Positions 23,494-40,164 of a DNA stretch of 64,000 nt are shown here, in pieces. Every line of letters begins with the position of its first letter. Position 1 is the stretch's first letter. The position numbers and the translations under genes are program-made. Below the pieces are notes generated by a model, which was not told the origin of the DNA, did no database searches, and worked only from the letters and a program-made list of their open reading frames with translations. The stretch is taken from positions 9,925 through 73,924 of the forward strand of contig CANMVD010000009.1 in NCBI GenBank assembly GCA_947501275.1, in the 5' to 3' direction. The stretch is from an uncultured Tateyamaria sp. (lineage in GTDB: Bacteria > Pseudomonadota > Alphaproteobacteria > Rhodobacterales > Rhodobacteraceae).

Positions 23494-23592
23494 GGCAACG
23501 GCGCGCGATCGGGGGCACTCATCGCGCACTGCAAAACCGCCAGTGCAGGCTTGCAAGATGCACTGGCTCATAACGCAACAGGGAGTTTGCAT

Positions 23593-24825: not shown

Positions 24826-24833
24826 GAGAAAAT

Positions 24834-24867
24834 GCGGTTGGCCGGGGTTAACGTCTCGGCCAACCGC
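24834..24867 (+). other. Intra-operon stem-loop after the SBP gene
   Basis: GCGGTTGGCCGGGG-TTAACG-TCTCGGCCAACCGC; no U tract; typical position for stabilising SBP mRNA. Confidence 0.6.
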
Positions 24868-25090
24868 CCACAGTCGGGGGACCAATGGCACAGGAATTAG
24901 ATCATAGCGATGTGGGCGGTGGCTTTGCTGGATGCGCGGTGGACGCGCATCTTGCTGAACACCCCGGCACGAAGTCCTGCGTGATCAAGACGAGGTCAGA
25001 TGACACTGACAGCAGGCCACCCGCGGCAGCGCCAATTGTCGGCAGGCAGATCGGCAGCCAAAGGGCCGACGTGACACAAAGGAAAGCGGC

Positions 25091-26119
25091 ATGAAATTCA
25101 AGACGTTCTTCTGGTTCGTGGCTCCGTCCTTGTTCATGATGATCCTGTTCATCGCGGCGCCGCTGATTTCAGTTTTCATCCAGTCCTTTCAAATCACGCA
25201 GCCGGTCATGCAGCAGATCGAGGTTGAGACCTGTACGCCCGGTTTCCTGACCCAGACCTGCACAACCGAACTGAAAACCGTTCCGGTGATTGATGAGGCC
25301 ACTGGAAAGACCCAGACCACAACGGCTTGGGTCGGCCTAGAAAGCTATCGCAACGTGCTGCAAATGGACAAGGTATGGGCCGCGATCGGCTCGGGCCAGT
25401 TCCGTGACATCCTGCAAATCGATTTCTGGAAAGCGTTGCGCTTTACCTTGACGTTCACGTTGTTGACCCTGCCGTTGGTGGTGGGTGTCGGCCTTGCCAT
25501 CGCGCTGGCCGTGAACAATGCGGCCAAGTCGCTGCGCGGCCCTGTGATTTTCATCTCGCTTTTGCCTTTCATTATCACGCCGGTGATCGGGTCGTTGTCG
25601 ATCTATTGGCTGTTTGTGGGTGACGGCATTCTGACCACTACGCTTGAACGCTGGACCGGGCAGGATATCGCCATGTTCGCACAAAGCTGGACCATCGAAT
25701 TACTGATGTATTTTTACCGGGTCTGGCACGTGGCGCCCTTTGCCTTTGTGATTTTCTATGCCGGGCTGCAAACAGTGAATATGGATACGCTGGAAAGCGC
25801 CATTATCGATGGGGCATCCCGCTTTGAGCGGTTGCGCTACGTGATCGTGCCGCACCTGATGCCGTTGATCGTGTTCATTGCGCTGATCCACTTGATGGAT
25901 TGCTACCGCGTGTTCGAAGAAATCATTGGCTTCCGCTCTGAAGCGCACGTGATTTCCCTGCAATGGCTGACCTTTGATTTCCTCACACCGGATGATGCGG
26001 GCAACCGGGCGATCAGCCGCGCCTCTGCAAGCGCCATGCTGACCATGATCGGGATCGTGATCCTGTTGATCCTGCCACTGCGCCGCACATGGCGTGACCA
26101 TAAGGGAGGGGCGCACTGA
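25091..26119 (+). CDS. CUT1 ABC transporter permease (MalF-like)
   Basis: FVIFYAGLQ...TLESAIIDGASRFERLRYVIVPHL (EAA loop). Confidence 0.92.
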   Translation: MKFKTFFWFVAPSLFMMILFIAAPLISVFIQSFQITQPVMQQIEVETCTPGFLTQTCTTELKTVPVIDEATGKTQTTTAWVGLESYRNVLQMDKVWAAIGSGQFRDILQIDFWKALRFTLTFTLLTLPLVVGVGLAIALAVNNAAKSLRGPVIFISLLPFIITPVIGSLSIYWLFVGDGILTTTLERWTGQDIAMFAQSWTIELLMYFYRVWHVAPFAFVIFYAGLQTVNMDTLESAIIDGASRFERLRYVIVPHLMPLIVFIALIHLMDCYRVFEEIIGFRSEAHVISLQWLTFDFLTPDDAGNRAISRASASAMLTMIGIVILLILPLRRTWRDHKGGAH

Positions 26120-27273
26120 TGTCCTCGAAAGCCACTGCGCAGCCGCTGTCGCTGAAGATCGCCTCTGGTGCATTCCTCGCCTTCTGGTGTGTGCTTGCTG
26201 CCTTTCCAATCTTCTGGATTGCGGTGATGAGCGTCAAATCCCCGCGCGACGCCTTTGCGGCAAGCGCGTGGGACGTGATCACCGGCCCAGTGACCCAGGC
26301 TGCCGGCAATGGACTGTCCGTTCTGGATATCGTGATTGGCTTGGCCTTCTTGGTCTATGCTGTTCGCTGGGCCTTTACCGGCCTGCCCAAGCTGATTGCC
26401 CACTTGTCCCCGCCAGCGTGGATCGTGCTTGGCTGGCTGGTTGGTGCGGCTGTCTATGCGGTCGTTTTCGTGCTGCTGTTCTTTGGGCTGTTGCCGATCA
26501 TCCTTGGGGCCGTCAACGCGATTGCGGGACCTTTGGGCACGCCGATCCTCGGGTTGACGACGGAACACTATGTGGCCGTGTGGGGCGAAAACGCATTTTA
26601 CGAAAACTTCATCAACTCGATGATCGTGACGGCGGGCGTTGTCACCGTGTCGCTGACGGTGGGTACATTGGCGGGCTACGGGCTGGCGCGTTCTGGGTCA
26701 AACCTTGCGTTCTGGCTGTTGATCCTCGCGCTGATCTTTCGCGCGCTGCCGCATTCGGTTTTGGTGGCTGGCTACTTGCCATGGTTCATCAACTCTGCGG
26801 AAATCCTGCGGCCCATTTTTGGCGAGCTTTCCCCGACGCTTTATGGTCAGCCATGGGCGGTGATCGCCGTTCTTGTGGCCATCAACCAACCCTTCACCAT
26901 CTGGATGCTGCGTTCGTTCTTCCAGAACATTCCGTCCGAACTGGACGAGGCTGCGCGGGTTGACGGGTGCAGCCACTTTCAGGCGTTCCGCCGGGTGATT
27001 ATGCCGGTCATGTGGCCGGGGGTTATCACGACGGGTCTGTTCAGCTTTTTGTTGGGCTATAACGACTTCCTCGTCACATCCTTGCTGCTGGATGCCCAAA
27101 ACCAAACGATGGTGCCGGCAATTGCGGGCTACTTTAACCGCGAAACCACAACCACGGATCAGGTCGAAGCGGTGGCCGCGGCTGTGTCCATCACGGCGCC
27201 ATTGTTCCTGCTTGTCATGGTCTTTCAACGTCAGATCGTGAGCGGGTTGACTGCAGGGGCGGTCAAGGGCTGA
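26119..27273 (+). CDS. CUT1 ABC transporter permease (MalG-like, with extra TM insertion)
   Basis: FFQNIP.ELDEAARVDGCS EAA loop; 384 aa with an additional hydrophobic hairpin near the N-terminus. Confidence 0.92.
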   Translation: MSSKATAQPLSLKIASGAFLAFWCVLAAFPIFWIAVMSVKSPRDAFAASAWDVITGPVTQAAGNGLSVLDIVIGLAFLVYAVRWAFTGLPKLIAHLSPPAWIVLGWLVGAAVYAVVFVLLFFGLLPIILGAVNAIAGPLGTPILGLTTEHYVAVWGENAFYENFINSMIVTAGVVTVSLTVGTLAGYGLARSGSNLAFWLLILALIFRALPHSVLVAGYLPWFINSAEILRPIFGELSPTLYGQPWAVIAVLVAINQPFTIWMLRSFFQNIPSELDEAARVDGCSHFQAFRRVIMPVMWPGVITTGLFSFLLGYNDFLVTSLLLDAQNQTMVPAIAGYFNRETTTTDQVEAVAAAVSITAPLFLLVMVFQRQIVSGLTAGAVKG

Positions 27274-27344
27274 TGAGCAGTGCATCGCGATCTGGCCGGA
27301 TGCAACGGCACCCGGCGCTCAACCGAATGCCCCGGGATTTCATC

Positions 27345-27375
27345 TGCAATACGTCGATCTCTTCAACGTATTGCA
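27345..27375. other. Intergenic inverted repeat before the first SnoaL gene
   Basis: TGCAATACGT-N11-ACGTATTGCA perfect 10-bp arms. Confidence 0.55.
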
Positions 27376-27404
27376 CACTCAAAGATGAATGAAAGGATGA
27401 TCCC

Positions 27405-27935
27405 ATGAAAGGATCTCGCCCCGAGCAAGCGGTGCTGACCCGCGACACGGACATGAGCAAAACGGATGCGACCCGCGCTGTGATTGAAGGTATGGTGGAC
27501 GGTCTCAATGACCACCGGATCGACGACATTGGCCAGTTCTTTGCACAGAGCTTTCGCTGGATGGGCAATACAGGGTGCGGCACCAAGACCGGCTTGCAGG
27601 AGTTTCAGGACAACTGGCAGCGTCCGTTTCAGGCGGCCTTTTCCGACAAGGTTTGCGTGGACGAGGCCCGTCTGTTCATGGGCGAATGGGCTGCGGCCTT
27701 TGGGCGACAGGAGGCCACGCACTCGGGCACCTTCATGGGGGTCGCCCCGACCGGCAAGCGGATCGAGATCCGCTATATGGATTTTTGGAAAGTCGAGGAA
27801 GATCGCATCACGGATAACTACGTGATGGTCGATTTCCCGCATGTATTGGCGCAGCTGGGGGTGGATGTATTCGACGGCGAGGGTTGGGAAGCTTTTGATC
27901 GCGGCGACAAGACCCCGCCGCGCCCGGATCAATGA
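27405..27935 (+). CDS. SnoaL/ester-cyclase-like protein (single NTF2 domain)
   Basis: ATHSGTFMGVAPTGKRIEIRYMDFWKV..DRI.DN.V.VD; AAAGGA RBS before ATG 27405 (alternative ATG 27453). Confidence 0.85.
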   Translation: MKGSRPEQAVLTRDTDMSKTDATRAVIEGMVDGLNDHRIDDIGQFFAQSFRWMGNTGCGTKTGLQEFQDNWQRPFQAAFSDKVCVDEARLFMGEWAAAFGRQEATHSGTFMGVAPTGKRIEIRYMDFWKVEEDRITDNYVMVDFPHVLAQLGVDVFDGEGWEAFDRGDKTPPRPDQ

Positions 27936-27943
27936 GGTAAGTC

Positions 27944-29272
27944 ATGACAATTGAGTATCTGAAGACGGCCAAGTCCGAGGCGGAACGCGCCGAAGATGAC
28001 GCCAAAGTGCGTTCAGCCGTCGAAGCGACGCTTGGCGATATCGAGGCGCGCGGAGATGAGGCCGTACGAGAATTGTCCGAAAAGTTCGACAATTACAGCC
28101 CGGACTCGTTCCGGCTGAGTATCGCGGAAATCGAGGCTCTGATTGCGGAGCTTTCCCCGCGTGAACTGGAGGATATCAAGTTCGCCCAACAGCAAGTGCG
28201 CGACTTTGCTCAGGCGCAACGAGAGTCGATGCTGGATATCGAGGTCGAGACGATGCCCGGTGTGATCCTTGGCCATAAAAACATCCCGGTTCAATCCGTG
28301 GGCTGTTACGTGCCCGGCGGCAAGTTCCCGATGGTGGCCTCGGCCCACATGTCGGTGGCTACGGCTTCGGTGGCAGGTGTGCCACGCATCATCGCCTGCA
28401 CACCACCTTGGCAGGGCAAACCCAATGCGGCGGTGATTGCGGCGATGCATCTGGGTGGCGCCCACGAGATTTACGTGATGGGGGGTATTCAGGCAGTGGG
28501 TGCGATGGCCATCGGGACCGAGACGATTGAACCCGTGCACATGCTTGTTGGACCGGGCAACGCCTTTGTCGCAGAAGCAAAGCGCCAGCTTTTTGGACGC
28601 GTCGGCATAGATCTGTTTGCCGGTCCCACCGAAACCATGGTGATTGCGGACGAAACCGTGGACGGAGAGATGTGTGCAACCGATCTGCTGGGACAGGCCG
28701 AGCATGGCTACAACTCACCCGCTGTTCTGCTGACCAATTCACGCAAACTGGCTGAGGAGACATTGGCAGAGATTGACCGGATTCTGACCATTTTACCGAC
28801 GGCCGATACCGCATCGAAGTCGTGGGAAGATTATGGTGAGGTCATTCTGTGCGACACCTACGACGAGATGTTGAAGGTGGCCGATGATGTCGCCAGCGAG
28901 CATGTGCAGGTGATGACGGATCGTGACGACTGGTTCTTGGAACATATGACCTGCTATGGGGCTCTGTTCCTTGGGCCGCGCACGAATGTCGCCAATGGCG
29001 ACAAGGTGATCGGCACCAACCACACTCTGCCCACCAAAAAGGCAGGGCGTTACACTGGTGGTTTGTGGGTTGGCAAGTACCTCAAGACGCACTCGTATCA
29101 GAAGGTCCTGACAGACGAAGCCGCCGCCGAGATCGGAGCCTATGGGTCGCGTTTGTGCATGCTCGAGGGGTTCGTGGGCCATGCAGAGCAATGCAATCTG
29201 CGGGTGCGCCGCTATGGCGGCGTAAATGTGCCCTATGGCACGGGTGCGCCTGCACGGGATGCTGCGGAATAG
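27944..29272 (+). CDS. Histidinol dehydrogenase-superfamily NAD/Zn dehydrogenase, HpsN-like paralog of unknown substrate
   Basis: [54 protein letters not shown]; no his operon context. Confidence 0.88.
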
Positions 29273-29323
29273 GGGCTTTGCTCCTCGGCTGCGCCTCACC
29301 CCAGGATTTTTTGAACAGAGAAA
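29272..29323 (+). repeat. REP-like element, copy D (divergent)
   Basis: GGGGCTTTGCTCC-[GGCTGCGCC hairpin]-ACCCCAGGATTTTTTGAACAGAGAAA; same layout as copies C and E. Confidence 0.55.
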
Positions 29324-29332
29324 CCAGACGTC

Positions 29333-30343
29333 GTGAGTATCGAAATCAATCAACGTAACAAGACCGTCGCGTTGGATCTGTGGGCTACGCTGGATTCTGA
29401 CCCCGCCGCCGCCCTGCCCATGCTTGATCATGTGATCCATTGGCAAGGTCCGGAGCCGATTGGGGTTCAGAAGTCTGGGGCTGACATTGTCGGCGCGCTG
29501 TTTGCGCCGCTGCGTGCGGCTATCCCGGATTTGACGCGTGAAACCCATATCTTCATGGGCGGGCAGTCGGATGCCGAAGAAGACGGGCGGGGCGATGGCC
29601 ATTGGTGGGTTGCTGGAACAGGCTATTTCACAGGGCGCGCGACCTCTGAAGCCTTCGGCATACCTGTAACTGATCACGATTTGCGTATCCGATGGGGTGA
29701 GTTTTTACGCTTTGACGCGGATGGCAACATCACCCATGCGCAAACGATCTGGGACTTTGTCGACTGGTTTGACCAGATCGGACATCCCGTTTTGCCGCGT
29801 CCACGGGGCGCGATGCATGTCTACCCGGCACCGACGGGCTACGATGGTGTGTTGGCTGGCCCTCAGGCGCAGGTTGAGACCATCGATACGCGCGCATTCG
29901 GGCGAGACTTTATCTTTGACGGTCTGAACAGCTTTGATGAGACGGATCTGTCCAGCATGGGGATGGCCAAGTTCTTTCACCCCAATCTCAAGTGGTACGG
30001 TCCCGGCGGGATCGGGGCCTGTCTGTCGCTGTCGGAGTTCGAAACATACCATCAACAGCCGTGGCTGGTTGCCTTTCCGGATCGCAAGGTCATGCATTTG
30101 GAAAGCCTGTTCGCGGAAGGACGGATGCTGGCGGCATCTGGGCCCAAAGGTGTGGTTGGTCATCATAAGGGTGTTTATCTGGGCCACGCGGCCACCGGTG
30201 CGGCAATCGAATTTTCCGGCCTTGATTTTTGGTTGCGTGATGGTGGCCAGTTCACTGAAAACTGGGTTTTTGTCGATATGATCCATTTGTTTGCCCAGAT
30301 CGGGGTGGACCTGTTTGCCCGATTGAAGAAAGCCGACGCATGA
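29333..30343 (+). CDS. Two-domain SnoaL/ester-cyclase-like protein A
   Basis: GTG start; two NTF2-type repeats; FHPNLKWYGPGGIG, GLDFWLR....ENWVFVD. Confidence 0.82.
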   Translation: MSIEINQRNKTVALDLWATLDSDPAAALPMLDHVIHWQGPEPIGVQKSGADIVGALFAPLRAAIPDLTRETHIFMGGQSDAEEDGRGDGHWWVAGTGYFTGRATSEAFGIPVTDHDLRIRWGEFLRFDADGNITHAQTIWDFVDWFDQIGHPVLPRPRGAMHVYPAPTGYDGVLAGPQAQVETIDTRAFGRDFIFDGLNSFDETDLSSMGMAKFFHPNLKWYGPGGIGACLSLSEFETYHQQPWLVAFPDRKVMHLESLFAEGRMLAASGPKGVVGHHKGVYLGHAATGAAIEFSGLDFWLRDGGQFTENWVFVDMIHLFAQIGVDLFARLKKADA

Positions 30344-31389
30344 GTGACGTGCATTCCACCCACAAGGACCTGATCGCCCCGGTGCGCGCGGCCATGTATG
30401 ACTTTGACCTTGCGGCCCTGCGCGATGCGCTGCACGCAGTATGCGCGCCCGATGTCGTCTTTCACCTTGCCTTTCCATTTGAGACGATCAGGGGGGTCGA
30501 AGCCTATGTCGAGCAGGTGTATGCCCCGCTTTTGGCGGCCCTGCCGGATTTGGAACGCCGCGATCACATCGTGATGGCCGGACCCACGCCGGAAGGCGCG
30601 GATTGGGTCGGGTGCGGGGGTTATTACACGGGCACATTCTTTGCCCCGTGGCTGGATATCCCGCCGACGGGCCATATCGTGCATATGCGCCATCACGAGT
30701 TTTACCGCTTTGAGGCTGGCAAGATTAGCGAAATGCAGGCGCTTTGGGATATTCCCGAGGTGATGATACAGGCGGGGGCGTGGCCATTGGCGCCATCGCT
30801 TGGGCGGGAATGGCATGTGCCGGGACCGGCGAGTAGTGATGGTCTGGTGCCCGGGCCGTACGATGCGGATGCAGGGCAGGCCACGTGTCAGCACATCATC
30901 GATATGCTGGAGCATATGAAGCGCCATCCCTCCCAAGGTGGGCCGGAGGTCATGGAAATGGATCGTTTCTGGCATCCAAAGATGATGTGGTACGGCCCCT
31001 CGGGCATCGGCTCCGGGCGCGGCATCAAAGGCTTTCGGGACTGGCACCAGATTCCGTTTCTGAACGCGATGCCGGACAGAGGCCAATACGTGGACGAGAT
31101 CAACTATCACTTCTTTGGGGATCGCGGGTATGCTGCAGTGACGGGATGGCCCAACATGTACCAGACGGTGACGCATGGTGGCTGGTTGGGACTGCCTCCA
31201 ACGGACAAGAAGATCGCCATGCGCAGTCTCGATTTCTGGAGGCTGGAGCACGGGCTGATAAGGGAGAACTGGGTGTTGGTGGACTTGCTGCACATGTATG
31301 ATCAGATTGGTGTGGATGTGCTGGCGCGCATGCGTGAATTCAACAAGGCGCGCGTCGGATTTGATGTCGAGACGGGGCGTGCGCAATGA
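30340..31389 (+). CDS. Two-domain SnoaL/ester-cyclase-like protein B
   Basis: WLDIPPTG, WHPKMMWYGPSGIG, SLDFWRL....ENWVLVD; paralog of the previous gene; ATGA overlaps. Confidence 0.82.
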   Translation: MSDVHSTHKDLIAPVRAAMYDFDLAALRDALHAVCAPDVVFHLAFPFETIRGVEAYVEQVYAPLLAALPDLERRDHIVMAGPTPEGADWVGCGGYYTGTFFAPWLDIPPTGHIVHMRHHEFYRFEAGKISEMQALWDIPEVMIQAGAWPLAPSLGREWHVPGPASSDGLVPGPYDADAGQATCQHIIDMLEHMKRHPSQGGPEVMEMDRFWHPKMMWYGPSGIGSGRGIKGFRDWHQIPFLNAMPDRGQYVDEINYHFFGDRGYAAVTGWPNMYQTVTHGGWLGLPPTDKKIAMRSLDFWRLEHGLIRENWVLVDLLHMYDQIGVDVLARMREFNKARVGFDVETGRAQ

Positions 31390-32147
31390 CCGAGTTGCCA
31401 CGCACCCCGCCATTGGATCTGAGTGGCAAGCGCGCTTTGGTGACAGGTGCATCATCCGGTATCGGGTTGGGATGTGCTGTGGCGTTGGCAGAGGCGGGGG
31501 CCCATGTGGTCTGTGCCGCGCGTCGACCGGATGTGCTGGCGGATGTCGTTGCGGCCATGCAGGCAGAAGGCTGGAGCGCAGAAGCATTGCCTCTGGATCA
31601 AACGGATCTTGAGGCCGTGAAAGCTGCCCTTGGGCAACCCTACGATGTGGTGCTGAATTCCGCAGGCCTCGCCCGCCATGCCCCTGCAATTGAAACGACG
31701 CCCGAAGATTTTGACGCGGTGGTGAACATCAACCTGCGCAGCGCCTTTTTCCTGTCCTCCTATGCGGCCAAGGCCCTGATGGATGCGGGCAAACCGGGCT
31801 CCATCATCCACATATCGTCCCAGATGGGGCATGTGGGGGGCATAGATCGCTCGGTTTACTGCGCCACGAAACATGGAGTCGAGGGGATGGTCAAAAGCAT
31901 GGCCATCGAATGGGGCAAAGCGGGCATTCGCATCAACACGATTTGCCCGACTTTCATTCGCACGGCTTTGACAAAAGTCACCTTTGACAACCCGGAACGC
32001 TATGCGTGGATCATGGACAAGATCAAGTTACCGCGCGTAGGCGAGGTCAGCGACATCATGGGGGCTGTCCAGTTCCTTGCGTCGGATGCATCCGCCATGG
32101 TGACGGGTACCCATATCCTGATCGACGGAGGCTGGACAGCGGACTGA
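31386..32147 (+). CDS. Short-chain dehydrogenase/reductase (classical SDR)
   Basis: TGASSGIG, NSAG, ISSQMG, YCATK, IDGG. Confidence 0.93.
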   Translation: MTELPRTPPLDLSGKRALVTGASSGIGLGCAVALAEAGAHVVCAARRPDVLADVVAAMQAEGWSAEALPLDQTDLEAVKAALGQPYDVVLNSAGLARHAPAIETTPEDFDAVVNINLRSAFFLSSYAAKALMDAGKPGSIIHISSQMGHVGGIDRSVYCATKHGVEGMVKSMAIEWGKAGIRINTICPTFIRTALTKVTFDNPERYAWIMDKIKLPRVGEVSDIMGAVQFLASDASAMVTGTHILIDGGWTAD

Positions 32148-33166
32148 TGGACAGACCTGTGACGGCATTGGATGTGGCACAAAAAGCGGGCGTATCGCGC
32201 TCGGCGGTGAGCCGTGTGTTTACGCCCGGCGCATCCGTGTCCAAGCGCACCGCGGAAAAGGTGCGTTGCGCGGCTGATGCGTTGGGCTATCGGCCCAATG
32301 TCTTGGCCAGATCGCTGATTACGGGGCGCAGCCGGATCATCGGCCTTGTGGTCGCCTACCTAGAAAATCAGTTCTACCCCGAAGCCATTGAACGGCTCAG
32401 CCGGCACTTGCAGGAGCGCGGCTATCACGTGCTGGTCTTCATGGCGTCCAACTCGGGTGAAGAGGCCGACGAAGTGATGGAAGAACTGCTCGACTACCAG
32501 GTCGACGGAATTATTGCGGCCAGTGTGGGGATGTCCAATGACCTGACGCGACGCTGCGAAGCCGCTGGCATCCCGATTGTGCTGTTCAACCGTGCACAGG
32601 ATGATGACCGTCTGTCTTCGGTCACGTCCGACAATTATCACGGGGGCCGCAAGCTGGCGGAGTTTCTTGTGGCAGGCGGACACAAACGCGTGGCCCATAT
32701 CGCCGGTTGGGAGGGGGCCTCTACCCAGCGGGACCGCGAAGCCGGTTTTGTTGCAGGATTGGCGGCGGCAGGGCAAACCCTCGCCGCGCGCGGCGTCAGT
32801 GATTTCGATTTTGAGCGGGCCAAAACAATCGCCCGCGAGATGTTCAGCTCTGACACTTATCCCGATGCCGTGTTTTGCGCCAACGACCACATGGCCTTTG
32901 CCGTCATGGATGTGCTGCGGTTCGAGTTGGGCCTGCGAGTGCCCGACGACGTGTCCGTTGTGGGCTATGACGATGTCACGCTGGCAGCATGGCCCAGCTA
33001 TGATTTGACGACGGTGCGCCAGCCTGCGGGGCAAATGGCGCGCGCGACGGTCGATATTCTGATGGATCGCTTGGCCGATCCCGAGACCAAACCCCGCCGG
33101 GTTGCGCTTGATGGACCTTTGATCCTGCGTCGCTCGGCCCGCATTCCAGAAGGTTGGACCACATGA
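32147..33166 (+). CDS. LacI family transcriptional regulator
   Basis: VTALDVAQKAGVSRSAVSRV HTH, YRPNVLARSL, PDAVFCAND, VSVVGYDD; TGATG overlap with the SDR. Confidence 0.95.
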   Translation: MDRPVTALDVAQKAGVSRSAVSRVFTPGASVSKRTAEKVRCAADALGYRPNVLARSLITGRSRIIGLVVAYLENQFYPEAIERLSRHLQERGYHVLVFMASNSGEEADEVMEELLDYQVDGIIAASVGMSNDLTRRCEAAGIPIVLFNRAQDDDRLSSVTSDNYHGGRKLAEFLVAGGHKRVAHIAGWEGASTQRDREAGFVAGLAAAGQTLAARGVSDFDFERAKTIAREMFSSDTYPDAVFCANDHMAFAVMDVLRFELGLRVPDDVSVVGYDDVTLAAWPSYDLTTVRQPAGQMARATVDILMDRLADPETKPRRVALDGPLILRRSARIPEGWTT

Positions 33167-34146
33167 AGGGCTTTTCGAACCGTTTTGCCGATTTCCCGGA
33201 CTACATCATCGGCATCACCAAGGAGATCTGGGAGGATCGCGGCATCGCGACTCTGCACCATTACTACAGTCCCGACATTGTGGTGCGTTCTCCTGCAAGC
33301 GTGGTGATTGGCAATCAGAAAGTCATTGGCGCCACCATGGCGACACTGGCCGAATTCCCTGATCGCACGTTGCTGGGCGAGGATGTGATCTGGTCCGGCA
33401 CACCGGAAGAGGGGATGTTGTCCTCGCACCGCATCCTGTCCACTGCGACCCACATGGCCGATGGCATGTACGGCAAAGCGTCAGGCAAGAAGCTGCAATA
33501 CCGCATCATTGCGGATTGTCACGCCATTAACGACCAGATCAATGACGAGTGGCTGATCCGCGACCAGACAGCAATCGTGAACCAGATCGGGTGGGAGGCC
33601 AAAGCCTTTGCCGCCGATTTGATCGAACGCGAAGGCGGGATGGACAAGGCGGTCATGCCGCTGACCCCGGCGACCGATCAGCCCGGCCCCTACAAGGGGC
33701 GTGGCAATGACAACGCCTGGGGCCAGAAATACGCAGATGTCCTGACGCGCATCATGGGCGCGGACATGGCTGTCATCCCGAGTGAATATGACCGCGCGAT
33801 CCAGTCCGAATATCCCGGTGGCGCAACCGGGCACGGCACCGCGCCTGTGGATCAGTTCTGGATGGGGCTGCGGGCGTCCTTCCCCGATGCCACGTTCTCC
33901 ATAGATCACCAGATCGGGCGCGACGACCCGACGATGCCGCCACGCGCGGCGATCCGCTGGGCGATGCACGGCAAGCATGATGGATGGGGCTACTTCGGCG
34001 CACCCACTGGGGCCGAAGTCTACGTGTTGGGGATTTCCCATGCCGAGTTTGGCTCGCTTGGGGTTGCCCAACCCAAAATCCGGCGTGAGTTTACACTGTT
34101 TGACGAAACGGCGATCTGGAAGCAGATCCTTCTGCAAACCGGATAG
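33163..34146 (+). CDS. Two-domain SnoaL/ester-cyclase-like protein C
   Basis: EIWEDR.....YYSPDIV, AEFPDR, EWLIRD; second repeat RASFPDA..., HGKHDGWGYFGAPTG; ATGA overlap with LacI. Confidence 0.78.
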   Translation: MKGFSNRFADFPDYIIGITKEIWEDRGIATLHHYYSPDIVVRSPASVVIGNQKVIGATMATLAEFPDRTLLGEDVIWSGTPEEGMLSSHRILSTATHMADGMYGKASGKKLQYRIIADCHAINDQINDEWLIRDQTAIVNQIGWEAKAFAADLIEREGGMDKAVMPLTPATDQPGPYKGRGNDNAWGQKYADVLTRIMGADMAVIPSEYDRAIQSEYPGGATGHGTAPVDQFWMGLRASFPDATFSIDHQIGRDDPTMPPRAAIRWAMHGKHDGWGYFGAPTGAEVYVLGISHAEFGSLGVAQPKIRREFTLFDETAIWKQILLQTG

Positions 34147-34231
34147 ACCATCGATGCGCTTGTTTCCCGGCCTTGCAGTTCTCACCTTTGTGTTGCCCGC
34201 CACGCGTGCGGGCGGCGAAAGGGAATAATCC

Positions 34232-34846
34232 ATGCAACGCTATGACGAACTGATGTTTACCGACGCTGTCAAAGCCTTTCAGGAGGTTGAAGGCGTGGCA
34301 GACAAATACGCGGCAACCTACGGCGCACGCGCCCATGCGCTGACTGAGGACGAGGTCGGATTTGTGACCAGCCGGACATCGTTCTATATGGCCACGGTGT
34401 CCGAAACCGGATGGCCCTACATTCAGCACCGCGGTGGGCCGGCGGGCTTTTTAAACGTGTTGGACGATCACACGCTCGCCTTTGCCGACTATCGCGGCAA
34501 CAAGCAGCATATCACCCAAGGAAATCTGGTCAGCGATGACCGCGTGTCGGTGTTCTTGATGGATTATCCTCGCAAGGCGCGCATGAAGCTACAGGGGCGC
34601 GCGACGTTTCAGCAGGCGACAGATGCGCCTGAACTGGCGAACCGCCTCGCGGTCAAAGGGCAGGGCCGGGTCGAACGGGTTGTGACCATCGCCCTTGAGG
34701 CGTTCGACTGGAACTGCCCGCAATACATCACGCCGCGCTTTGAAAGTGCCGAGATCGCGCAACTGGTTGGCCCCGAGATGGACAGACTGACTGCCCGTAT
34801 CGCGGAATTGGAAGCCGAGATTGCCGCGCTGAAAGGGCAGGGATGA
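34232..34846 (+). CDS. Pyridoxamine 5'-phosphate oxidase-like FMN-binding protein
   Basis: FYMATVSETGWPYIQHRGGPAGFL, ADYRGNKQ.IT.GN, FDWNCPQYITPR. Confidence 0.88.
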   Translation: MQRYDELMFTDAVKAFQEVEGVADKYAATYGARAHALTEDEVGFVTSRTSFYMATVSETGWPYIQHRGGPAGFLNVLDDHTLAFADYRGNKQHITQGNLVSDDRVSVFLMDYPRKARMKLQGRATFQQATDAPELANRLAVKGQGRVERVVTIALEAFDWNCPQYITPRFESAEIAQLVGPEMDRLTARIAELEAEIAALKGQG

Positions 34847-35379
34847 GCGATATCTACGCCGCAGCCGAACGCCTTATGGGGATGCAGGACGCCGATTGGC
34901 GGCGGCATGCAAATCCGCTCAGCGTCTGGACGCGGTTCAGCTGTTTGCCCCTGCTGGCGCTGGCGATTTATGCGCGCGCTTGGGTGGGGTGGGCCGCACT
35001 TCCGCTCTTTGGCGTGGCGGCGGCCTGGACGTGGTACAATCCGCGCGCCTTTTCGCCACCTGCCGACTTTGGCGCATGGGCCTCACGCGCCACATTGGGC
35101 GAGCGGATCTTTCTCGACCGCGCTCGCTACGGCGTGGCACGCCATCACATTCTCGCAGCGCACGTACTGACGGCCCTGTCCGCAGCTGGCATCATTCCGT
35201 TGATTTACGGGCTGATCCTTCTCAACCCGTGGGCGACGTTCACGGGCCTTGTCGCCGTCATTTTGCCCAAGGTCTGGTTCTGTGACCGCATGGTCTGGAT
35301 CCACGCCGAGATGACAGGCACCACACCGGGCGACCCTATGCCCGATCCGATCATGCCACCAGATCTGGCACCGCTATGA
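34843..35379 (+). CDS. Small membrane protein, DUF6653-like
   Basis: WRRHANPLSVWTRF motif recalled for this family; four hydrophobic segments; KVWFCDRMVW. Confidence 0.65.
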   Translation: MSDIYAAAERLMGMQDADWRRHANPLSVWTRFSCLPLLALAIYARAWVGWAALPLFGVAAAWTWYNPRAFSPPADFGAWASRATLGERIFLDRARYGVARHHILAAHVLTALSAAGIIPLIYGLILLNPWATFTGLVAVILPKVWFCDRMVWIHAEMTGTTPGDPMPDPIMPPDLAPL

Positions 35380-35417: not shown

Positions 35418-35690
35418 ATGCAGTTCTCCTTTAACTATTCTACCTTTCGCGGGTTCTTTGACAGCTTCTCGAAACCCGTGGGCGAGCGCGCCGTTCACGT
35501 TGTGAATGGCAACATCAAAGTGCAACAACGCGGAGAAGGCGACGATGCGCGGTTTTACCTGCGCATCCGCTCTGGCTTTTCCAATTTTCAGTATCAGCGT
35601 ATCGAGTGGGCACAAATGCTCGCCCTTGCCGAAGCCTTGGTCGATATGGCTCAAGACTGCGAAACTCAAGAAAAGGACAACACGACATGA
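35418..35690 (+). CDS. Small hypothetical protein (90 aa)
   Basis: AGGTGGAG RBS, ATG 35418; stop overlaps the cupin ATG (ATGA); no family recognised. Confidence 0.6.
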   Translation: MQFSFNYSTFRGFFDSFSKPVGERAVHVVNGNIKVQQRGEGDDARFYLRIRSGFSNFQYQRIEWAQMLALAEALVDMAQDCETQEKDNTT

Positions 35691-36652
35691 CCCCCGCCGA
35701 GATGGAGCCGCGCATTGTGCGTTACGGCGATCTGATGCCCTGCAAGACCGCCTTTATCGATGCCCACACGCCGGGGTCCGACCAAAAGGAGAATTTTACC
35801 ATCATCGGGGGTGGGGTCTCGGAATCGGCGGACCAGCATGTCCATATTTCGATCCCGCACGGGTTTAACATCGGGGCGGCCGGGCAACCGCCCAAGTGCC
35901 GAAACTCCCTGCACTCCCACCGCACGGCAGAGGTGTTTTTTGTCTTGTCGGGGCGTTGGCGGTTTTTCTGGGGGCGCTACGGTGATGCAGGTGAGGTCGT
36001 GCTGGAAGAAGGCGACATCATCAACATCCCCACAGGGATCTTTCGCGGCTTTGAAAATATCGGAACAGAGTACGGGATGATCATGGCGATCCTTGGAGGC
36101 GATGATGCCGGGGGCGGCGTCATTTGGGCCCCGCAAGTGATCGAGGATGCGGCGGATCACGGGCTGGTGCTGGGCGAGAACGGACAGCTTTATGACACCA
36201 AGGCCGGGGCAACCTTGCCCGACGGGGTCGCGCCGATGCCCGTGCTCAGCGAAGACGAGCTCAAGCACTACCCGGAGATGACACCGGGCGAGGTTGTTGG
36301 CATGGGGGTGCGCCGCTACTGGGATATGGTTGCGCTGGCCAAGGACACGCCCTGCAAGGTGATTGGCGAGACCGGGATCATCCGTGACAAACCGGGTTTC
36401 GAGGTTGATCTGATCACCCGCAGTTCCGCCACGCACGACATGCACCAGCACGACCGTCCGTCGGTTCTGATGCCCATGCGCGGCCATTGGCGCGTGAGTT
36501 GGGAGGGGGGCAGCACGACCCTTGCCCCCGGCGACACGATGAGCGTGCCGGAAAACATGCCCCACAGCGCCGTTCCGTCGATGACGGGACCGGCATCGCT
36601 CTATCATGTCGTCGGTACGGACGATCCTGCAGGGCCCACATGGCAAGGCTGA
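35687..36652 (+). CDS. Bicupin protein
   Basis: Cupin 1 HSHRTAEVFFVLSG...GDIINIPTG; cupin 2 HQH...GDTMSVPENMPH. Confidence 0.85.
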   Translation: MTPAEMEPRIVRYGDLMPCKTAFIDAHTPGSDQKENFTIIGGGVSESADQHVHISIPHGFNIGAAGQPPKCRNSLHSHRTAEVFFVLSGRWRFFWGRYGDAGEVVLEEGDIINIPTGIFRGFENIGTEYGMIMAILGGDDAGGGVIWAPQVIEDAADHGLVLGENGQLYDTKAGATLPDGVAPMPVLSEDELKHYPEMTPGEVVGMGVRRYWDMVALAKDTPCKVIGETGIIRDKPGFEVDLITRSSATHDMHQHDRPSVLMPMRGHWRVSWEGGSTTLAPGDTMSVPENMPHSAVPSMTGPASLYHVVGTDDPAGPTWQG

Positions 36653-37569
36653 TTGCATGTGTTCTGGGCCTTTGGGTTTGCGCTGTGCACGCGCAGGCGC
36701 AGGTCTGGCAGGCGCAAACCGTGGATGGCGGGCATTTTGTCTTTCACATCGCGCGCGCGGGGGTGGCCGTAGACTTTGTCTGCCTTGCACCCTCCCTGCA
36801 GCGACGCCCTGCCGTAGACGTCGAGCAGCACGAGATCAGGCCCATGGCGCCCGGCATGACCCGGCTTGAGATCGGGACCGAGCGCGTGCCTGTTGGCAAT
36901 GACGTGATCCGCAATGACGTTGTTTTGTGGGCGGATCAGACGGGGTACCGGCTGCCGACCATCACGTTCAACGAACTCGATGGCGTTTGGCAGGTGGATA
37001 TCTCGGCCACGGATCCGATGTGGACCGGCTTGGTGCAGGCAAGCACGGTGATACTCGCGCCCGGTCAGGCGCAGGCCTGGCAATTGCCTGTGGCCGGGTT
37101 GGCTGGTGCGGTGACGCAGGTCCAAAGCGACTGCGCACAGGCGTGGTCGGCCGCGCAAGCCGCACCAGCGCCTGCGCAAGGTATCGTGACCATTCCGCCA
37201 GAAGTTGGCGCGCGCGTCAGTCAGGGGTGTGGCGCGCAGACGCCGCTGCCGGGCGCAGCGGTGCAGGCTGGCGACCTTGACCGCGATGGCACGCCAGACT
37301 TTGTGGTGAACTGGGGAGAGATCAGATGCCCCGGTGCCAATGCGCGCCCTTTCTGCGGGGCTGCCAATTGCAGTCAGATGGTGTTCCTGTCTTCGCGCCG
37401 TTTTCTGGACCCTGTCGACTTTTTGGGCACCTCTCTCACGATCGTGCCACACCACAGCGGTGCGCTGGCCCTCAGGATGACGGGTTCCTTTTCTCTGTGC
37501 GGCGCACAAGGAGAAAACTGTGCCAACCCATTGGTGTGGGATGGTGCTTCATTCGTTGAACGGCCATAA
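36640..37569 (+). CDS. Secreted hypothetical protein with DxDxDG Ca-binding-like loop and Cys pairs
   Basis: Signal peptide (AQA), Ala/Pro linker, GDLDRDGTPD, FCGAANC. Confidence 0.7.
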   Translation: MARLIACVLGLWVCAVHAQAQVWQAQTVDGGHFVFHIARAGVAVDFVCLAPSLQRRPAVDVEQHEIRPMAPGMTRLEIGTERVPVGNDVIRNDVVLWADQTGYRLPTITFNELDGVWQVDISATDPMWTGLVQASTVILAPGQAQAWQLPVAGLAGAVTQVQSDCAQAWSAAQAAPAPAQGIVTIPPEVGARVSQGCGAQTPLPGAAVQAGDLDRDGTPDFVVNWGEIRCPGANARPFCGAANCSQMVFLSSRRFLDPVDFLGTSLTIVPHHSGALALRMTGSFSLCGAQGENCANPLVWDGASFVERP

Positions 37570-37598: not shown

Positions 37599-38720
37599 AT
37601 GGTTTTAACGACACATGCGGGCAGCCTGCCACGCACGCAAGAGATCGTCGATTTCATTTTTGCGCGTGAGCGTGGCGAGGACTACGATCCGGCCGCCTTT
37701 GACGCCGCCATGACGGCGGCGGTCGATGTGACGGTTGCCAAACAGGTGGCCGCAGGTGTCGGCATTGTCAGTGATGGCGAGACGTCCAAGATCAGCTATG
37801 CCACCTATGTCAAGGATCGCTACACCGGCTTTTCTGGCGACAGCCCCCGCAATGCTCCCGCCGACCTCAAGAAATTCCCCAGTTTCCTCAAGCGCCTTGC
37901 AGACGATGGTGGCACCCCGCAATATGCACGCCCCATGTGCACGGGGCCCGTGAAAAGCCGTGGGCAGGGCGAGTTGGGAAAGGACATCGCCAATCTCAAG
38001 GCTGCCATGGCCAAACACGGGGCCGAGCGGGGCTTTATGAATGCCGCCTCACCGGGTGTGATTTCGTTGTTTTTGCAAAACGACTACTATCCCACGCGCG
38101 AGGCTTATCTGGCCGCGCTGGCTGATGCGATGAAGGAAGAATACGAAACCATCGTGGCGGCGGGTCTGGATCTGCAACTTGACTGCCCCGACCTCGCGCT
38201 CAGCCGTCACATGCTGTTTGCAGATCTCAGCGATGCCGAATTCCTGAAAATCGCAGACGCGCATGTGGAAGCGATGAATTATGCGTTGTCGGATGTGCCT
38301 GCCGAGAAAGTTCGTGTGCACATCTGCTGGGGCAACTACGAGGGGCCGCATGTCTGTGATATCGACATGGACACGGTGTTTCCGACGCTGATGGCAACCA
38401 AGGCGCGCTACATGCTGTTTGAAACGTCCAACCCCCGCCACGCCCATGAATGGACCGTGTTCCGCGACCGGCGCAGCGAAATCCCTGACGACAAGGTGCT
38501 GGTGCCGGGGGTCGTCGACACAACCACGAATTTTGTCGAGCACCCCGAAGTTGTGCGCCAACGGATCGATCGGTTCACAGACATCGTGGGCGAGGATCGG
38601 GTGATTGCGGGCAGCGACTGCGGCTTTGGCACCTTTGCGGGCTTTGGGGCCGTCGATCCTGACATTGCCTATGCCAAACTTCAGGTGATGGCCGAAGGTG
38701 CCGCATTGGCCAAAGGATAA
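37599..38720 (+). CDS. Cobalamin-independent methionine synthase II-like (single-barrel MetE/UROD superfamily) Zn enzyme
   Basis: TTHAGSLPR, SDGE, LQLDCP, HICWGNY (HxC), DCGFGT (third Zn ligand); 373 aa, so no N-terminal folate-binding barrel. Confidence 0.88.
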   Translation: MVLTTHAGSLPRTQEIVDFIFARERGEDYDPAAFDAAMTAAVDVTVAKQVAAGVGIVSDGETSKISYATYVKDRYTGFSGDSPRNAPADLKKFPSFLKRLADDGGTPQYARPMCTGPVKSRGQGELGKDIANLKAAMAKHGAERGFMNAASPGVISLFLQNDYYPTREAYLAALADAMKEEYETIVAAGLDLQLDCPDLALSRHMLFADLSDAEFLKIADAHVEAMNYALSDVPAEKVRVHICWGNYEGPHVCDIDMDTVFPTLMATKARYMLFETSNPRHAHEWTVFRDRRSEIPDDKVLVPGVVDTTTNFVEHPEVVRQRIDRFTDIVGEDRVIAGSDCGFGTFAGFGAVDPDIAYAKLQVMAEGAALAKG

Positions 38721-38725
38721 GCGCG

Positions 38726-39418
38726 ATGGACAACGCCCTGCACGATCTGTTGGCCTCGGTCGACACGCCAACTGTGTGCAACGCCATCGAGGTGGCCCAA
38801 GGAAAACGCGGCTTTAACGGGTTTACGCGCGGCACAATGCTGGCCTCGGATCCGGGTGGCGTGATGGTCGGCTATGCCCGCACGGCACGCATACGGGCTG
38901 TCGCTCCGCCAACCGAAGCGCCCGAGGTGATCAAGGCGCGGCGCATGGCCTATTACCGCTACATGTCCGAAGGTTCTCGACCCGCGGTATGTGTGGTGCA
39001 GGACCTTGATGTACCTGCCGCAATCGGGGCGTATTGGGGTGAGGTGAACACCAATATACACAAGGCATTCGGGCTTGCGGGTACTCTGACGGACGGAGTG
39101 ATGCGGGATCTCGGGGATGTGGCCGAAGGCTATCCGGTTGTCGCGGGATCAATTGGGCCCAGCCACGGATATGTGCACGTGATTGACTACGATCTGCCGG
39201 TGCGGATCCACGGGCTCGATATCCGGCCGGGCGATCTGGTCCATGCGGACCGTCACGGCGCAGTTGTGGTGCCACCGGATGTGATCGACACGCTGGCGGC
39301 TGCCATTGCAACGCTCATGCAATCTGAAAAGATCGTGTTTGACGCGGTAAAGGACAAGCGTATCTCGTTTGAGGATTTCGAGGTGGCTTGGGCCGCGTTT
39401 GAGGCCGCGCGCACGTGA
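38726..39418 (+). CDS. RraA/HMG aldolase-like family protein
   Basis: DTPTVCNA, AYWGEV, TDGVMRD, PGDLVHADRHGAVVVP. Confidence 0.85.
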   Translation: MDNALHDLLASVDTPTVCNAIEVAQGKRGFNGFTRGTMLASDPGGVMVGYARTARIRAVAPPTEAPEVIKARRMAYYRYMSEGSRPAVCVVQDLDVPAAIGAYWGEVNTNIHKAFGLAGTLTDGVMRDLGDVAEGYPVVAGSIGPSHGYVHVIDYDLPVRIHGLDIRPGDLVHADRHGAVVVPPDVIDTLAAAIATLMQSEKIVFDAVKDKRISFEDFEVAWAAFEAART

Positions 39419-39936
39419 TCCGGGCCTTGATCTGTGCCGTGTTCACATGCATCGGGGCAGCGCAGGCGCAGGAGGCCAGAATGGAATTGCAGGCAGACTG
39501 GGAATATGTGGCCGACAAGGTCATGGGTGGCGTGTCACGCGGTCAGATGCGTCGGGAAGCCGTCGATGGGCGCGAAGCTGCACGTCTCACGGGCACTGTA
39601 TCATTGGACAATGATGGCGGATTTATCCAAATGGCTTTTGACCTTGGACCGTTGGATGTGTCGGCCTGGACCGGGATCGAGATCGACGTGATTGGCAACG
39701 GCGAACGCTACGACATGCGTTTGCGCACCCAGGATCTGACCCGGCCATGGCAATCCTACCGAACTGAGTTCGTCGCCCCGCAGCGTTGGAATACTATCCA
39801 ACTGCCATTTTCGGAGTTCGAGGCTCATCGTACCGAGGCACCGCTTGCCCTTGATCGCCTGCGACGCATCGGTGTTCTCGCCATTGGCCGTGTGTTTGAC
39901 GCTGATGTCTCGGTGGCTGCCATCCGTCTTTATTGA
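39415..39936 (+). CDS. CIA30/NDUFAF1-like (CBM11-like fold) protein with signal peptide
   Basis: VADKVMGGVSRG, VSLDNDGGF, PWQSYR.EF; GTGA overlap with the RraA gene. Confidence 0.85.
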   Translation: MIRALICAVFTCIGAAQAQEARMELQADWEYVADKVMGGVSRGQMRREAVDGREAARLTGTVSLDNDGGFIQMAFDLGPLDVSAWTGIEIDVIGNGERYDMRLRTQDLTRPWQSYRTEFVAPQRWNTIQLPFSEFEAHRTEAPLALDRLRRIGVLAIGRVFDADVSVAAIRLY

Positions 39937-40164
39937 ACGCGCGATTCGATCTGTCTACGGCAGTTTGATTGCCCGTCAAATGACCACACTGGCTGCGCGG
40001 ACCGTCAAATTTCAGTGAAATGGACAACCTGCGGTAAACAATACGTGCCAATTCAGGTGACTTCCCCAATTGCGCATGTGTAAAGTCTGGATATTTAATG
40101 AATGTCATTTTGTGGCAATTTCACCCCTTGAGGGGCCTGGTCGAAATTTAGGGGAAACTTCGAC

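Follow-up and report, generated by a model that had tools for sequence, protein, structure and literature searches.

What is a single-barrel relative of the methionine synthase MetE doing near the end of a long row of co-directional genes for uptake and breakdown? The question is raised by a 64,000-nt window of DNA from an uncultured Tateyamaria sp. (contig CANMVD010000009.1), in which three adjacent genes lie at positions 37599-39936. A first-pass annotation, made from the letters of this window, had read them as a MetE-like zinc enzyme, an RraA-like aldolase and an exported CIA30 protein that work together. Its open reading frames (ORFs) and their coordinates, the 5-nt gap (GCGCG) between the MetE-like stop and the RraA-like start, and the 4 nt (GTGA) shared by the RraA-like and CIA30 genes are all confirmed; overall, the observation stands and the interpretation is partly supported. 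The three genes are:

37599..38720, + strand: MetE-like gene, 373 aa, ATG start, GAGG 8 nt upstream
38726..39418, + strand: RraA-like gene, 230 aa, optional tail gene of the island
39415..39936, + strand: CIA30 gene, 173 aa, GTG start

The MetE-like and RraA-like proteins match the Pfam families PF01717 (Meth_synt_2, 43.5 bits) and PF03737 (66.6 bits), both above the gathering cut-offs, and the CIA30 protein matches PF08547 at 92.1 bits against a gathering threshold of 24. Here, we describe how a core MetE-type enzyme has been recruited into a widespread, unstudied marine uptake-and-breakdown operon, which we call the island. Our preferred reading, a tentative one, is that the enzyme takes a methyl group off the substrate that the island imports and passes it to homocysteine, giving methionine, and that a 2-oxo-acid product is then cleaved or decarboxylated by the RraA-like enzyme.

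A single MetE barrel with an intact homocysteine site

The AlphaFold2 model of the 373-aa MetE-like protein (P0001), built from an alignment of 76 family members, has a predicted local distance difference test score (pLDDT) of 96. It superposes on the C-terminal barrel alone of the 720-770-aa MetE structures, with a template modelling (TM) score of 0.77-0.79 by query and ~0.41 by target, and because this barrel is all that the model covers, the folate-binding half is absent. The model also superposes on MesD (PDB 3RPD) and on 1YPX. Profile alignment with hhalign to MetE of Escherichia coli MG1655 (probability 98.8%) places H241, C243, E275 and C341 on the zinc ligands H641, C643, E665 and C726, and S9, E61 and D195 on the homocysteine-binding residues S433, E484 and D599; the functional roles of the MetE residues are those given by Price et al. 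2021 (PMC7857596). Six of these seven residues are kept in at least 70 of the 76 family members (≥90%), among relatives down to 35% identity, with the homocysteine triad present in 70 (S9), 75 (E61) and 75 (D195). The seventh, E275, is retained in 55 of the 76, in a family that spans 35-90% identity. The model and the alignment thus bear out the earlier description of a MetE-like protein with HxC...C zinc ligands and no folate-binding half; the homocysteine triad had gone unremarked in it.

The curated classes of methionine synthase do not accommodate this protein. Canonical MetE has two tandem barrels, ~750 aa and an N-terminal site for methyl-folate polyglutamate, and can be rejected for a one-barrel protein of 373 aa; the corresponding model, NF003556/PRK05222, gives 20.7 bits against a cut-off of 541. 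The best methionine-synthase model, NCBIfam PRK04326, also stays below its cut-off (87.5 against 406 bits), as do the further single-barrel models PRK09121 (49.6 against 392), PRK00957 (48.9 against 258) and PRK06233 (42 against 576). The best PDB sequence matches reach E ~1e-3. The residues and the failed models together agree with the first-pass view of a single barrel of the zinc/thiol type that is neither a canonical nor a curated methionine synthase.

The MesD/MesX system was considered as well and rejected. P0001 resembles MesD (PMC7857596; PDB 3RPD) in its size, in having one MetE-type barrel with identical zinc and homocysteine residues, and in its aerobic bacterial host, and it too would use a non-folate donor. 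Unlike MesD, for which the criterion is at least 390 bits to ACIAD3523 (PMC7857596), it scores 66 bits, with 24% identity, to an Acinetobacter plasmid MesD that is encoded beside MesX, and no MesX partner was seen: a search of the 99.98%-complete Tateyamaria genome for MesX (PF08908), with a model that gives 531 bits on the control plasmid, found none. P0001 is the sole PF01717 protein of the genome.

The fold also bears on a non-thiol alternative, in which the zinc would serve as a Lewis acid, or the barrel would behave like that of uroporphyrinogen decarboxylase, to decarboxylate, hydrate or isomerise an amino-acid-like intermediate bound by the triad. Uroporphyrinogen decarboxylases are indeed a weak structural match to the model (TM 0.4-0.5), distant homologues are encoded near amidohydrolases, a LigB-type dioxygenase and hydratase/lyases, and no bacterial methionine-related phenotype has been reported for the Phaeobacter inhibens gene discussed below (PMC12366255, PMC12478193). 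However, zinc enzymes that alkylate thiols are recognised by just such a site, with His/Cys/Cys and an exchangeable Glu as ligands, and the persistence of seven MetE residues over deep divergence would be unexpected after a change of chemistry. We regard this alternative as distinctly unlikely.

A conserved uptake island

Upstream of the three genes, the window holds the rest of the island in the same orientation:

22447..35379, + strand: co-directional rest of the island (Pfam scans), comprising an ABC transporter ATPase, a binding protein, two permeases, SnoaL, HisD-like, two double-SnoaL genes, SDR, LacI, a further double-SnoaL, PNPOx-like and DUF6653
35687..36652, + strand: bicupin, with its start at M28 of an ORF beginning at 35606 (Cupin_2, 54 bits)
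36640..37569, + strand: exported Cys-rich protein, ~309 aa from an internal Met, between the bicupin and the MetE-like gene

After LacI, the gene order is therefore double-SnoaL, PNPOx-like, DUF6653, bicupin, Cys-rich protein and MetE-like. The association of the MetE-like gene with this island was assessed in a panel of 150 genomes, one for each other Rhodobacteraceae genus. An orthologue, mostly 67-86% identical, occurs in 68 genera and the HisD-like island gene in 81; both are present in 64, the MetE-like gene alone in 4, the HisD-like gene alone in 17 and neither in 65. Two of the four MetE-like-only genomes are incomplete (63% and 66%), one is fragmented and 92% complete, and one carries a 50%-identical paralogue. 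Co-occurrence with the HisD-like gene, which the first-pass annotation had proposed as a check, is thus found in 64 of the 68 genera that bear the MetE-like gene. The order HisD, (SnoaL), SDR, LacI, double-SnoaL, bicupin, MetE is present in 19 of 20 Rhodobacteraceae contexts of 20 kb.

A scan of species-representative genomes returned more than 500 MetE-like relatives, of which the best 80 (76-89% identical) make up the named loci used here. They come from Rhodobacterales, SAR116/Puniceispirillum, Hyphomicrobiales and Rhodospirillales, and from the gammaproteobacterial SUP05/Thioglobus and Granulosicoccus. Among them, 63 could be evaluated upstream of the MetE-like gene and 66 downstream. The upstream partners are close to universal, with double-SnoaL in 63 of 63, the bicupin in 60, and LacI and the HisD-like gene in 58 each, so that the link between the MetE-like gene and the SnoaL/HisD-like island holds in other genomes. 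Downstream genes vary more: a 230-aa alpha/beta-hydrolase in 36 of 66, RraA in 31 and CIA30 in 2. The hydrolase is absent between the MetE-like and RraA-like genes in Tateyamaria and its nearest relatives. The high identity across classes argues for strong constraint and for lateral spread of the island.

Some islands lack the MetE-like gene. In L099-L103 (genomes G029, G116, G032, G110 and G004), the HisD-like gene, (SDR), bicupin, hydrolase and RraA-like gene are kept and the MetE-like gene is missing; in L100, the island is otherwise complete and this gene alone is gone. Such islands fit a step that is required solely for a methylated form of the substrate. G032 and G110 each carry a full island and a MetE-less variant in one genome.

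The immediate neighbours of the MetE-like gene were also inspected. The bicupin, whose motif H76-x-H78...E82 is invariant, is a conserved upstream neighbour and likely a pathway partner of the MetE-like enzyme; a PDB sequence search with it gave no match. The Cys-rich protein has a signal-like segment (MARLIACVLGLWVCAVHAQA) after residue 51 of its ORF and no Pfam family above the cut-off, with a sub-threshold FG-GAP hint only; its homologues, 26-47% identical, are confined to near relatives, which marks it as a lineage-restricted insert. In 8 of the 63 loci evaluable upstream, a 200-aa class I S-adenosylmethionine (SAM) methyltransferase lies immediately upstream of the MetE-like gene (L073, 17382-17984; also L085, L086, L093, L094, L110 and L111); these loci include the four RraA-less congeners described below. 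The methyltransferase is of a generic class I type and gives no clue to function.

The regulatory setting is that of catabolism. No Rfam family reached its gathering score anywhere in the window, and hence no B12 or SAM riboswitch was seen. Elsewhere, the genome encodes three proteins with a homocysteine-methyltransferase domain (PF02574), and a B12-binding cap domain lies 1.5 kb from one of the three. A second pterin-binding protein is also encoded; the MetH reactivation domain PF02965 was not found in the genome. Taken together, these are the components of a split B12-dependent MetH as described in Roseobacters (PMC12478193). A LacI-type operon with an ABC importer, no riboswitch in the window and the split MetH parts together argue for a catabolic setting rather than a methionine regulon.

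The island's seven NTF2/SnoaL domains, counted in Pfam scans, raise the possibility of a reaction like that of epoxyalkane:coenzyme M transferase (EaCoMT), which shares the zinc H-x-C...C chemistry. Here a zinc-activated thiol (homocysteine, cysteine, glutathione or another) would add to an epoxide or other electrophilic carbon, supplied by the SnoaL, flavoprotein or bicupin enzymes, to give a thioether adduct. Some NTF2-fold enzymes act on epoxides, and in Sphingobium a homologue with 52% identity shows translational coupling to a SnoaL_4 protein. Against this, a homocysteine adduct would be a catabolic dead end barring a lyase, and none is evident; the eukaryotic relatives behave as methionine synthases (PMC10861871, PMC9734096). 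The plasmid genes auto-named xecA1, names that are automatic and do not denote verified EaCoMT, are just 23-24% identical to P0001, in the same band as plasmid matches annotated as methionine synthase, one of which is a true MesD beside MesX. We consider this the least probable of the alternatives.

Several loci deserve mention in their own right. The whole island, with a MetE-like protein 77-81% identical to P0001, is found in metagenome-assembled genomes (MAGs) of SUP05, Candidatus Thioglobus and Granulosicoccus type (L157, L171, L155 and L169); identity at this level between Gamma- and Alphaproteobacteria suggests recent lateral transfer of the island between the classes, with MAG binning error as a possible cause. 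In Marinovum algicola, plasmid pMaD9 bears the island (L075) beside dimethylsulfoniopropionate (DMSP) demethylation genes (dmdA and others) and a gene for an SBP56-type selenium-binding protein, and in Ruegeria sp. AD91A the island lies on a 743-kb plasmid. At G037:C4:278953-281965, the MetE-like gene is broken, with an in-frame TGA and overlapping fragments, next to an intact RraA-like gene.

More distant homologues, at 53% identity or less (P0124, P0129 and P0273), stand in varied contexts that lack RraA and give no substrate clue. On a plasmid of Sphingobium sp. RAC03 (L074; NZ_CP016453.1, 13032-27000), the 52%-identical MetE-like gene follows a p-hydroxycinnamoyl-CoA hydratase/lyase and overlaps the start of the SnoaL_4/NTF2 gene. 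About 8 kb downstream, a homologue of the island hydrolase, with 33% identity, neighbours a GcvT-type gene that is accompanied by metF, purU and folD, a context that loosely and weakly echoes a link to demethylation.

Fusion relatives in eukaryotes

The family extends to eukaryotes. A library clustered at 50% identity contains 915 family clusters at E ≤ 1e-30, among them the eukaryotic fusion proteins P0204, P0218, P0221, P0238 and P0299. In Emiliania huxleyi, the barrel occurs as acyl carrier protein (ACP)-MetE-flavin monooxygenase (FMO) and as acyltransferase (AT)-ketosynthase (KS)-ACP-MetE-FMO. Across the full barrel, these and related fusions share 36-47% identity with P0001 (E ≤ 1e-64), and all seven functional residues are invariant in them. 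A quick maximum-likelihood tree groups the fusions in one clade (Shimodaira-Hasegawa-like approximate likelihood-ratio test 100) and the island proteins in another, both inside the family, and gives E. coli MetE a very long branch.

These proteins connect the island to published work on B12. The MetE-fusion is a B12-independent methionine synthase of Phaeocystis antarctica and other protists; it has the carrier-MetE-flavin layout seen in E. huxleyi, and in P. antarctica it is induced at low B12 in axenic cultures growing without B12 (Rao et al. 2024, PMC10861871). A Schizochytrium AT-KS-MetE-CzcO 'MetE-like' gene is induced in the absence of B12 and repressed by methionine (PMC9734096). P0001 is like the MetE-fusion in that the E. 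huxleyi relatives belong to the same sequence family and the folate-binding barrel is missing (PMC10861871); the Schizochytrium protein is likened by domain architecture, not by sequence (PMC9734096). Unlike the fusions, which carry a carrier domain before the barrel, an FAD/NAD(P) oxidoreductase after it and often KS and AT, P0001 consists of the barrel alone, its bacterial island orthologues being 371-379 aa long, and its gene lies in a LacI-regulated uptake operon in a window that showed no B12 riboswitch.

In one eukaryotic transcript, P0204, a MetE-like domain is fused with a cupin; this cupin and the N-terminal one of the island bicupin share 27% identity (E 1e-17). Read as a Rosetta stone, this fusion hints that the bicupin and the MetE-like enzyme may act together. 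The available parts of the MetE-fusion papers make no mention of a MetE-cupin fusion (PMC10861871, PMC9734096).

The RraA-like protein

The RraA-like protein is predicted from its residues to be a divalent-metal 2-oxo-acid aldolase or decarboxylase. Its G105-E106 and R127-D128 align with G101-D102 and R123-D124 of the Pseudomonas putida HMG/CHA aldolase (3NOJ), and E201 lies ~7 residues past the end of the 3NOJ alignment, where the equivalent of E199 would be expected; all five residues are invariant across 42 orthologues. Asp102 of 3NOJ, to which we presume a functional role, corresponds to Glu106 here. In the characterised enzyme, Arg123 serves to stabilise the enolate of pyruvate, and the metal ligands are Asp124 and Glu199 (PMC5065237).

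The protein thus resembles HMG/CHA aldolases (LigK, GalC; 3NOJ) in its RraA fold, in the catalytic Arg (R127), the metal-binding Asp (D128) and Glu (E201) and the pyruvate-pocket Gly (G105), and in its position at the end of a catabolic operon. It differs in the replacement of Asp102 by an invariant Glu, in five extra invariant histidines (H112, H147, H151, H173 and H177) and in having no protocatechuate or gallate pathway genes alongside. A LigK-type assignment was rejected (TIGR02798, 32.1 bits against 304.5; NF006731, 29.1 against 179), as was RraA proper, the RNase E regulator of ~160 aa, to which the 230-aa protein matches at E 0.15-0.21 (1J3L and 3C8O). The same fold also serves as a 2-keto-3-deoxy-aldarate (KDGR) dehydratase/decarboxylase, FlDet, in alginate users (PMC8563752). 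Because the LigK model failed and the fold has other activities, 'metal-dependent 2-oxo-acid enzyme' is the safe label. The aldolase-type chemistry suggested earlier for this gene remains a reasonable prediction in this broader form, as an aldol or decarboxylation reaction on a 2-oxo acid with the catalytic Arg, Asp and Glu retained.

The RraA-like gene is present in 41 of the 150 genera, 38 of them with the MetE-like gene and 39 with the HisD-like gene. In four congeners, the MetE-like gene is followed directly by CIA30 with no RraA, and the 200-aa SAM methyltransferase lies upstream. Together with the MetE-less islands that keep RraA, these congeners indicate that one system contains the MetE-like and RraA-like genes as two modules and not as an obligate pair. 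An HpcH/HpaI aldolase in place of RraA was sought in 10 ORFs (nine from loci without an adjacent RraA and one hydrolase control), and none was seen among them.

Proposed function

In the reading that we prefer, P0001 is a folate-domain-less ('core') member of the MetE superfamily, whose zinc, bound by His, Cys, Glu and Cys, would activate the thiol of L-homocysteine while the Ser/Glu/Asp triad holds this substrate. The thiolate would accept a methyl group (another small alkyl group is less likely) from the imported compound or an intermediate derived from it, giving methionine and a demethylated carbon skeleton and saving the methyl without folate or B12. Its partners in the pathway would be the HisD-like dehydrogenase, SDR, SnoaL proteins and bicupin that are encoded upstream. 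A late 2-oxo-acid intermediate would then pass to the RraA-like enzyme, and in most other genera also to the 230-aa alpha/beta-hydrolase. The RraA-like enzyme would proceed through a metal-stabilised enolate, by retro-aldol cleavage, decarboxylation, or dehydration with decarboxylation.

We infer homocysteine as the thiol, methyl as the group moved and the island substrate as the donor. Methyl transfer is the most economical account of an intact homocysteine site, kinship with B12-sparing synthases, the missing folate domain and a position in an inducible operon. The first-pass annotation had proposed a thiol-dependent ring-opening or demethylation: the class of chemistry is supported, and within it the homocysteine triad and membership of the MetE-fusion family favour methyl transfer over epoxide ring-opening. 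Methionine-synthase activity, which it had named as an outcome that would refute its proposal, may instead be compatible with a catabolic role.

Several points weigh against this reading. E275 is replaced in 21 of the 76 family members, and the Ser/Glu/Asp triad might be conserved for structural reasons or because it binds a different amino acid. The importer belongs to the CUT1 sugar/polyol type. Onium methyl donors, among them betaines and sulfonium compounds, are taken up by importers of other families, and sugar O-methyl ethers are poor methyl donors to a thiolate. Against PDB sequences, the binding protein (23551-24825) found distant sugar/polyol binders only, with no substrate clue, and neither oxidation of a primary alcohol by the HisD-like enzyme nor a sugar/polyol-type importer points to a methyl donor.

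Genetic evidence comes from Phaeobacter inhibens, in which a 'mes-like' gene, PGA1_c27430, has been deleted (PMC12366255). The gene-specific part of the upstream deletion primer encodes AFIDAHT, the island bicupin motif, and the downstream primer is the reverse complement of codons for IGAYWG, an RraA-like motif; in island loci, these sites lie ~1 kb either side of the MetE-like gene, which fits the published 1-kb flanks. Compared with the island loci, a set that did not include the P. inhibens genome, the primers gave no exact match, and 1-2 mismatches at the bicupin and RraA motifs. From these matches at the right distances, PGA1_c27430 is very probably the island MetE-like orthologue.

The published phenotypes also count against our preferred reading. 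Deletion of the mes-like gene had no phenotype in one test (DMSP shortening of the lag phase on glucose; PMC12366255), and split-MetH mutants are methionine auxotrophs despite having the gene (PMC12478193), so that methionine synthesis by it has never been observed. The same results argue against a constitutive housekeeping synthase, and they are expected if the enzyme is repressed, or lacks its donor, when the island substrate is absent.

This bears directly on the possibility that the protein is a stand-alone backup methionine synthase and a mere passenger of the island, using a general donor (a methyl-corrinoid, as for MesA-C, or an oxygen-dependent route, as for MesD). In published work, the mes-like gene and the 'core-MetE homologues of cosmopolitan marine bacteria' are viewed only as candidates for a spare methionine synthase, with the operon undescribed (PMC12366255, PMC12478193). 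The catalytic and homocysteine-binding residues are conserved, characterised core synthases accept methylcobalamin in vitro (PMC7857596), the eukaryotic relatives respond to B12 (PMC10861871, PMC9734096), and a P. inhibens bmt mutant keeps slow residual growth without methionine (PMC12366255). Yet a position after the bicupin that is fixed across classes would be odd for a hitch-hiker, the gene lies within a LacI-type operon in a window without a detected B12 or SAM riboswitch, MesX was not found in the genome, split-MetH mutants are auxotrophic, and the presence of the gene in 68 of 150 genera tracks that of the island. We find a backup role unlikely.

CIA30 and the 3' border

The third gene does not belong to the conserved system. 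The CIA30 protein has an N-terminus (MIRALICAVFTCIGAAQA, then QE) that by eye resembles a signal peptide, and against PDB sequences it gave chance-level matches to HPr-like proteins only. Of 25 congeners, 21 have its gene at this position, with 53-66% identity against 82-90% for the neighbouring genes, and in 11 other genera its orthologues are far from the island, on other contigs or megabases away. It occurs in 41 of the 150 genera, 23 of the 68 with the MetE-like gene and 18 of the 82 without, which amounts to no association. Although it is probably co-transcribed here, CIA30 is a genus-specific periplasmic bystander, and the mitochondrial complex-I assembly role of CIA30 is inapplicable to an exported bacterial protein.

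The functional trio of the first-pass annotation therefore does not hold, as CIA30 is linked to the island within the genus only, is distant elsewhere and does not co-occur with the MetE-like gene. That annotation had also said that a trio unlinked to the island in other genomes would speak against it; the outcome is mixed, with the MetE-like gene linked, CIA30 unlinked and RraA optional, being adjacent in 31 of 66 loci. In Tateyamaria, two fast-evolving exported proteins, the Cys-rich protein and CIA30, flank the cytoplasmic MetE/RraA pair.

One further feature lies 3' of CIA30:

39951..39963, + strand: terminator-like hairpin with a T-rich tail (pattern scan, consensus match only)

This hairpin is a probable 3' end of the operon, predicted from its pattern, and with it the three genes would close the long co-directional gene row. 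The next gene begins at 40165, after a gap of 228 nt. It encodes a nucleotide cyclase-FHA protein (40165-41058), stands between CIA30 and a convergent MR/MLE gene and is variably present among congeners; in those without it, CIA30 directly abuts MR/MLE.

Implications for methyl metabolism in the ocean

Vitamin B12 supply is a shaper of ocean productivity, and the MetE-fusion of Phaeocystis, Emiliania and dinoflagellates has overturned the view that haptophytes require this vitamin. Bacterial members of the same family have so far been dismissed as 'questionable' spare methionine synthases. Our analysis places them as the best-conserved gene, 76-90% identical across two proteobacterial classes, of a repressor-controlled uptake operon that is carried by Roseobacters, SAR116, SUP05, Granulosicoccus and Hyphomicrobiales, with orthologues 67-90% identical overall. 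The P. inhibens deletion mutant offers tractable genetics, and a short list of partner enzymes is available for tracing the donor and the substrate.

A bolder proposal, which we regard as possible but doubtful, is that the island is a methyl-harvesting route that passes the methyl of an abundant algal metabolite directly to homocysteine, with neither folate nor B12, and that it shares its donor chemistry with the MetE-fusion. The donor might be a methyl ester or onium intermediate made by partner enzymes: in algae, this role would fall to the carrier-protein and flavin-monooxygenase domains, and in bacteria to the bicupin and SnoaL enzymes. If this were true, the shared donor chemistry would explain how phytoplankton with the MetE-fusion supply themselves with methionine when B12 is scarce. 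If demethylation of an algal compound is coupled to methionine synthesis, the island would newly connect algal exudates with the bacterial methyl cycle and with independence from B12.

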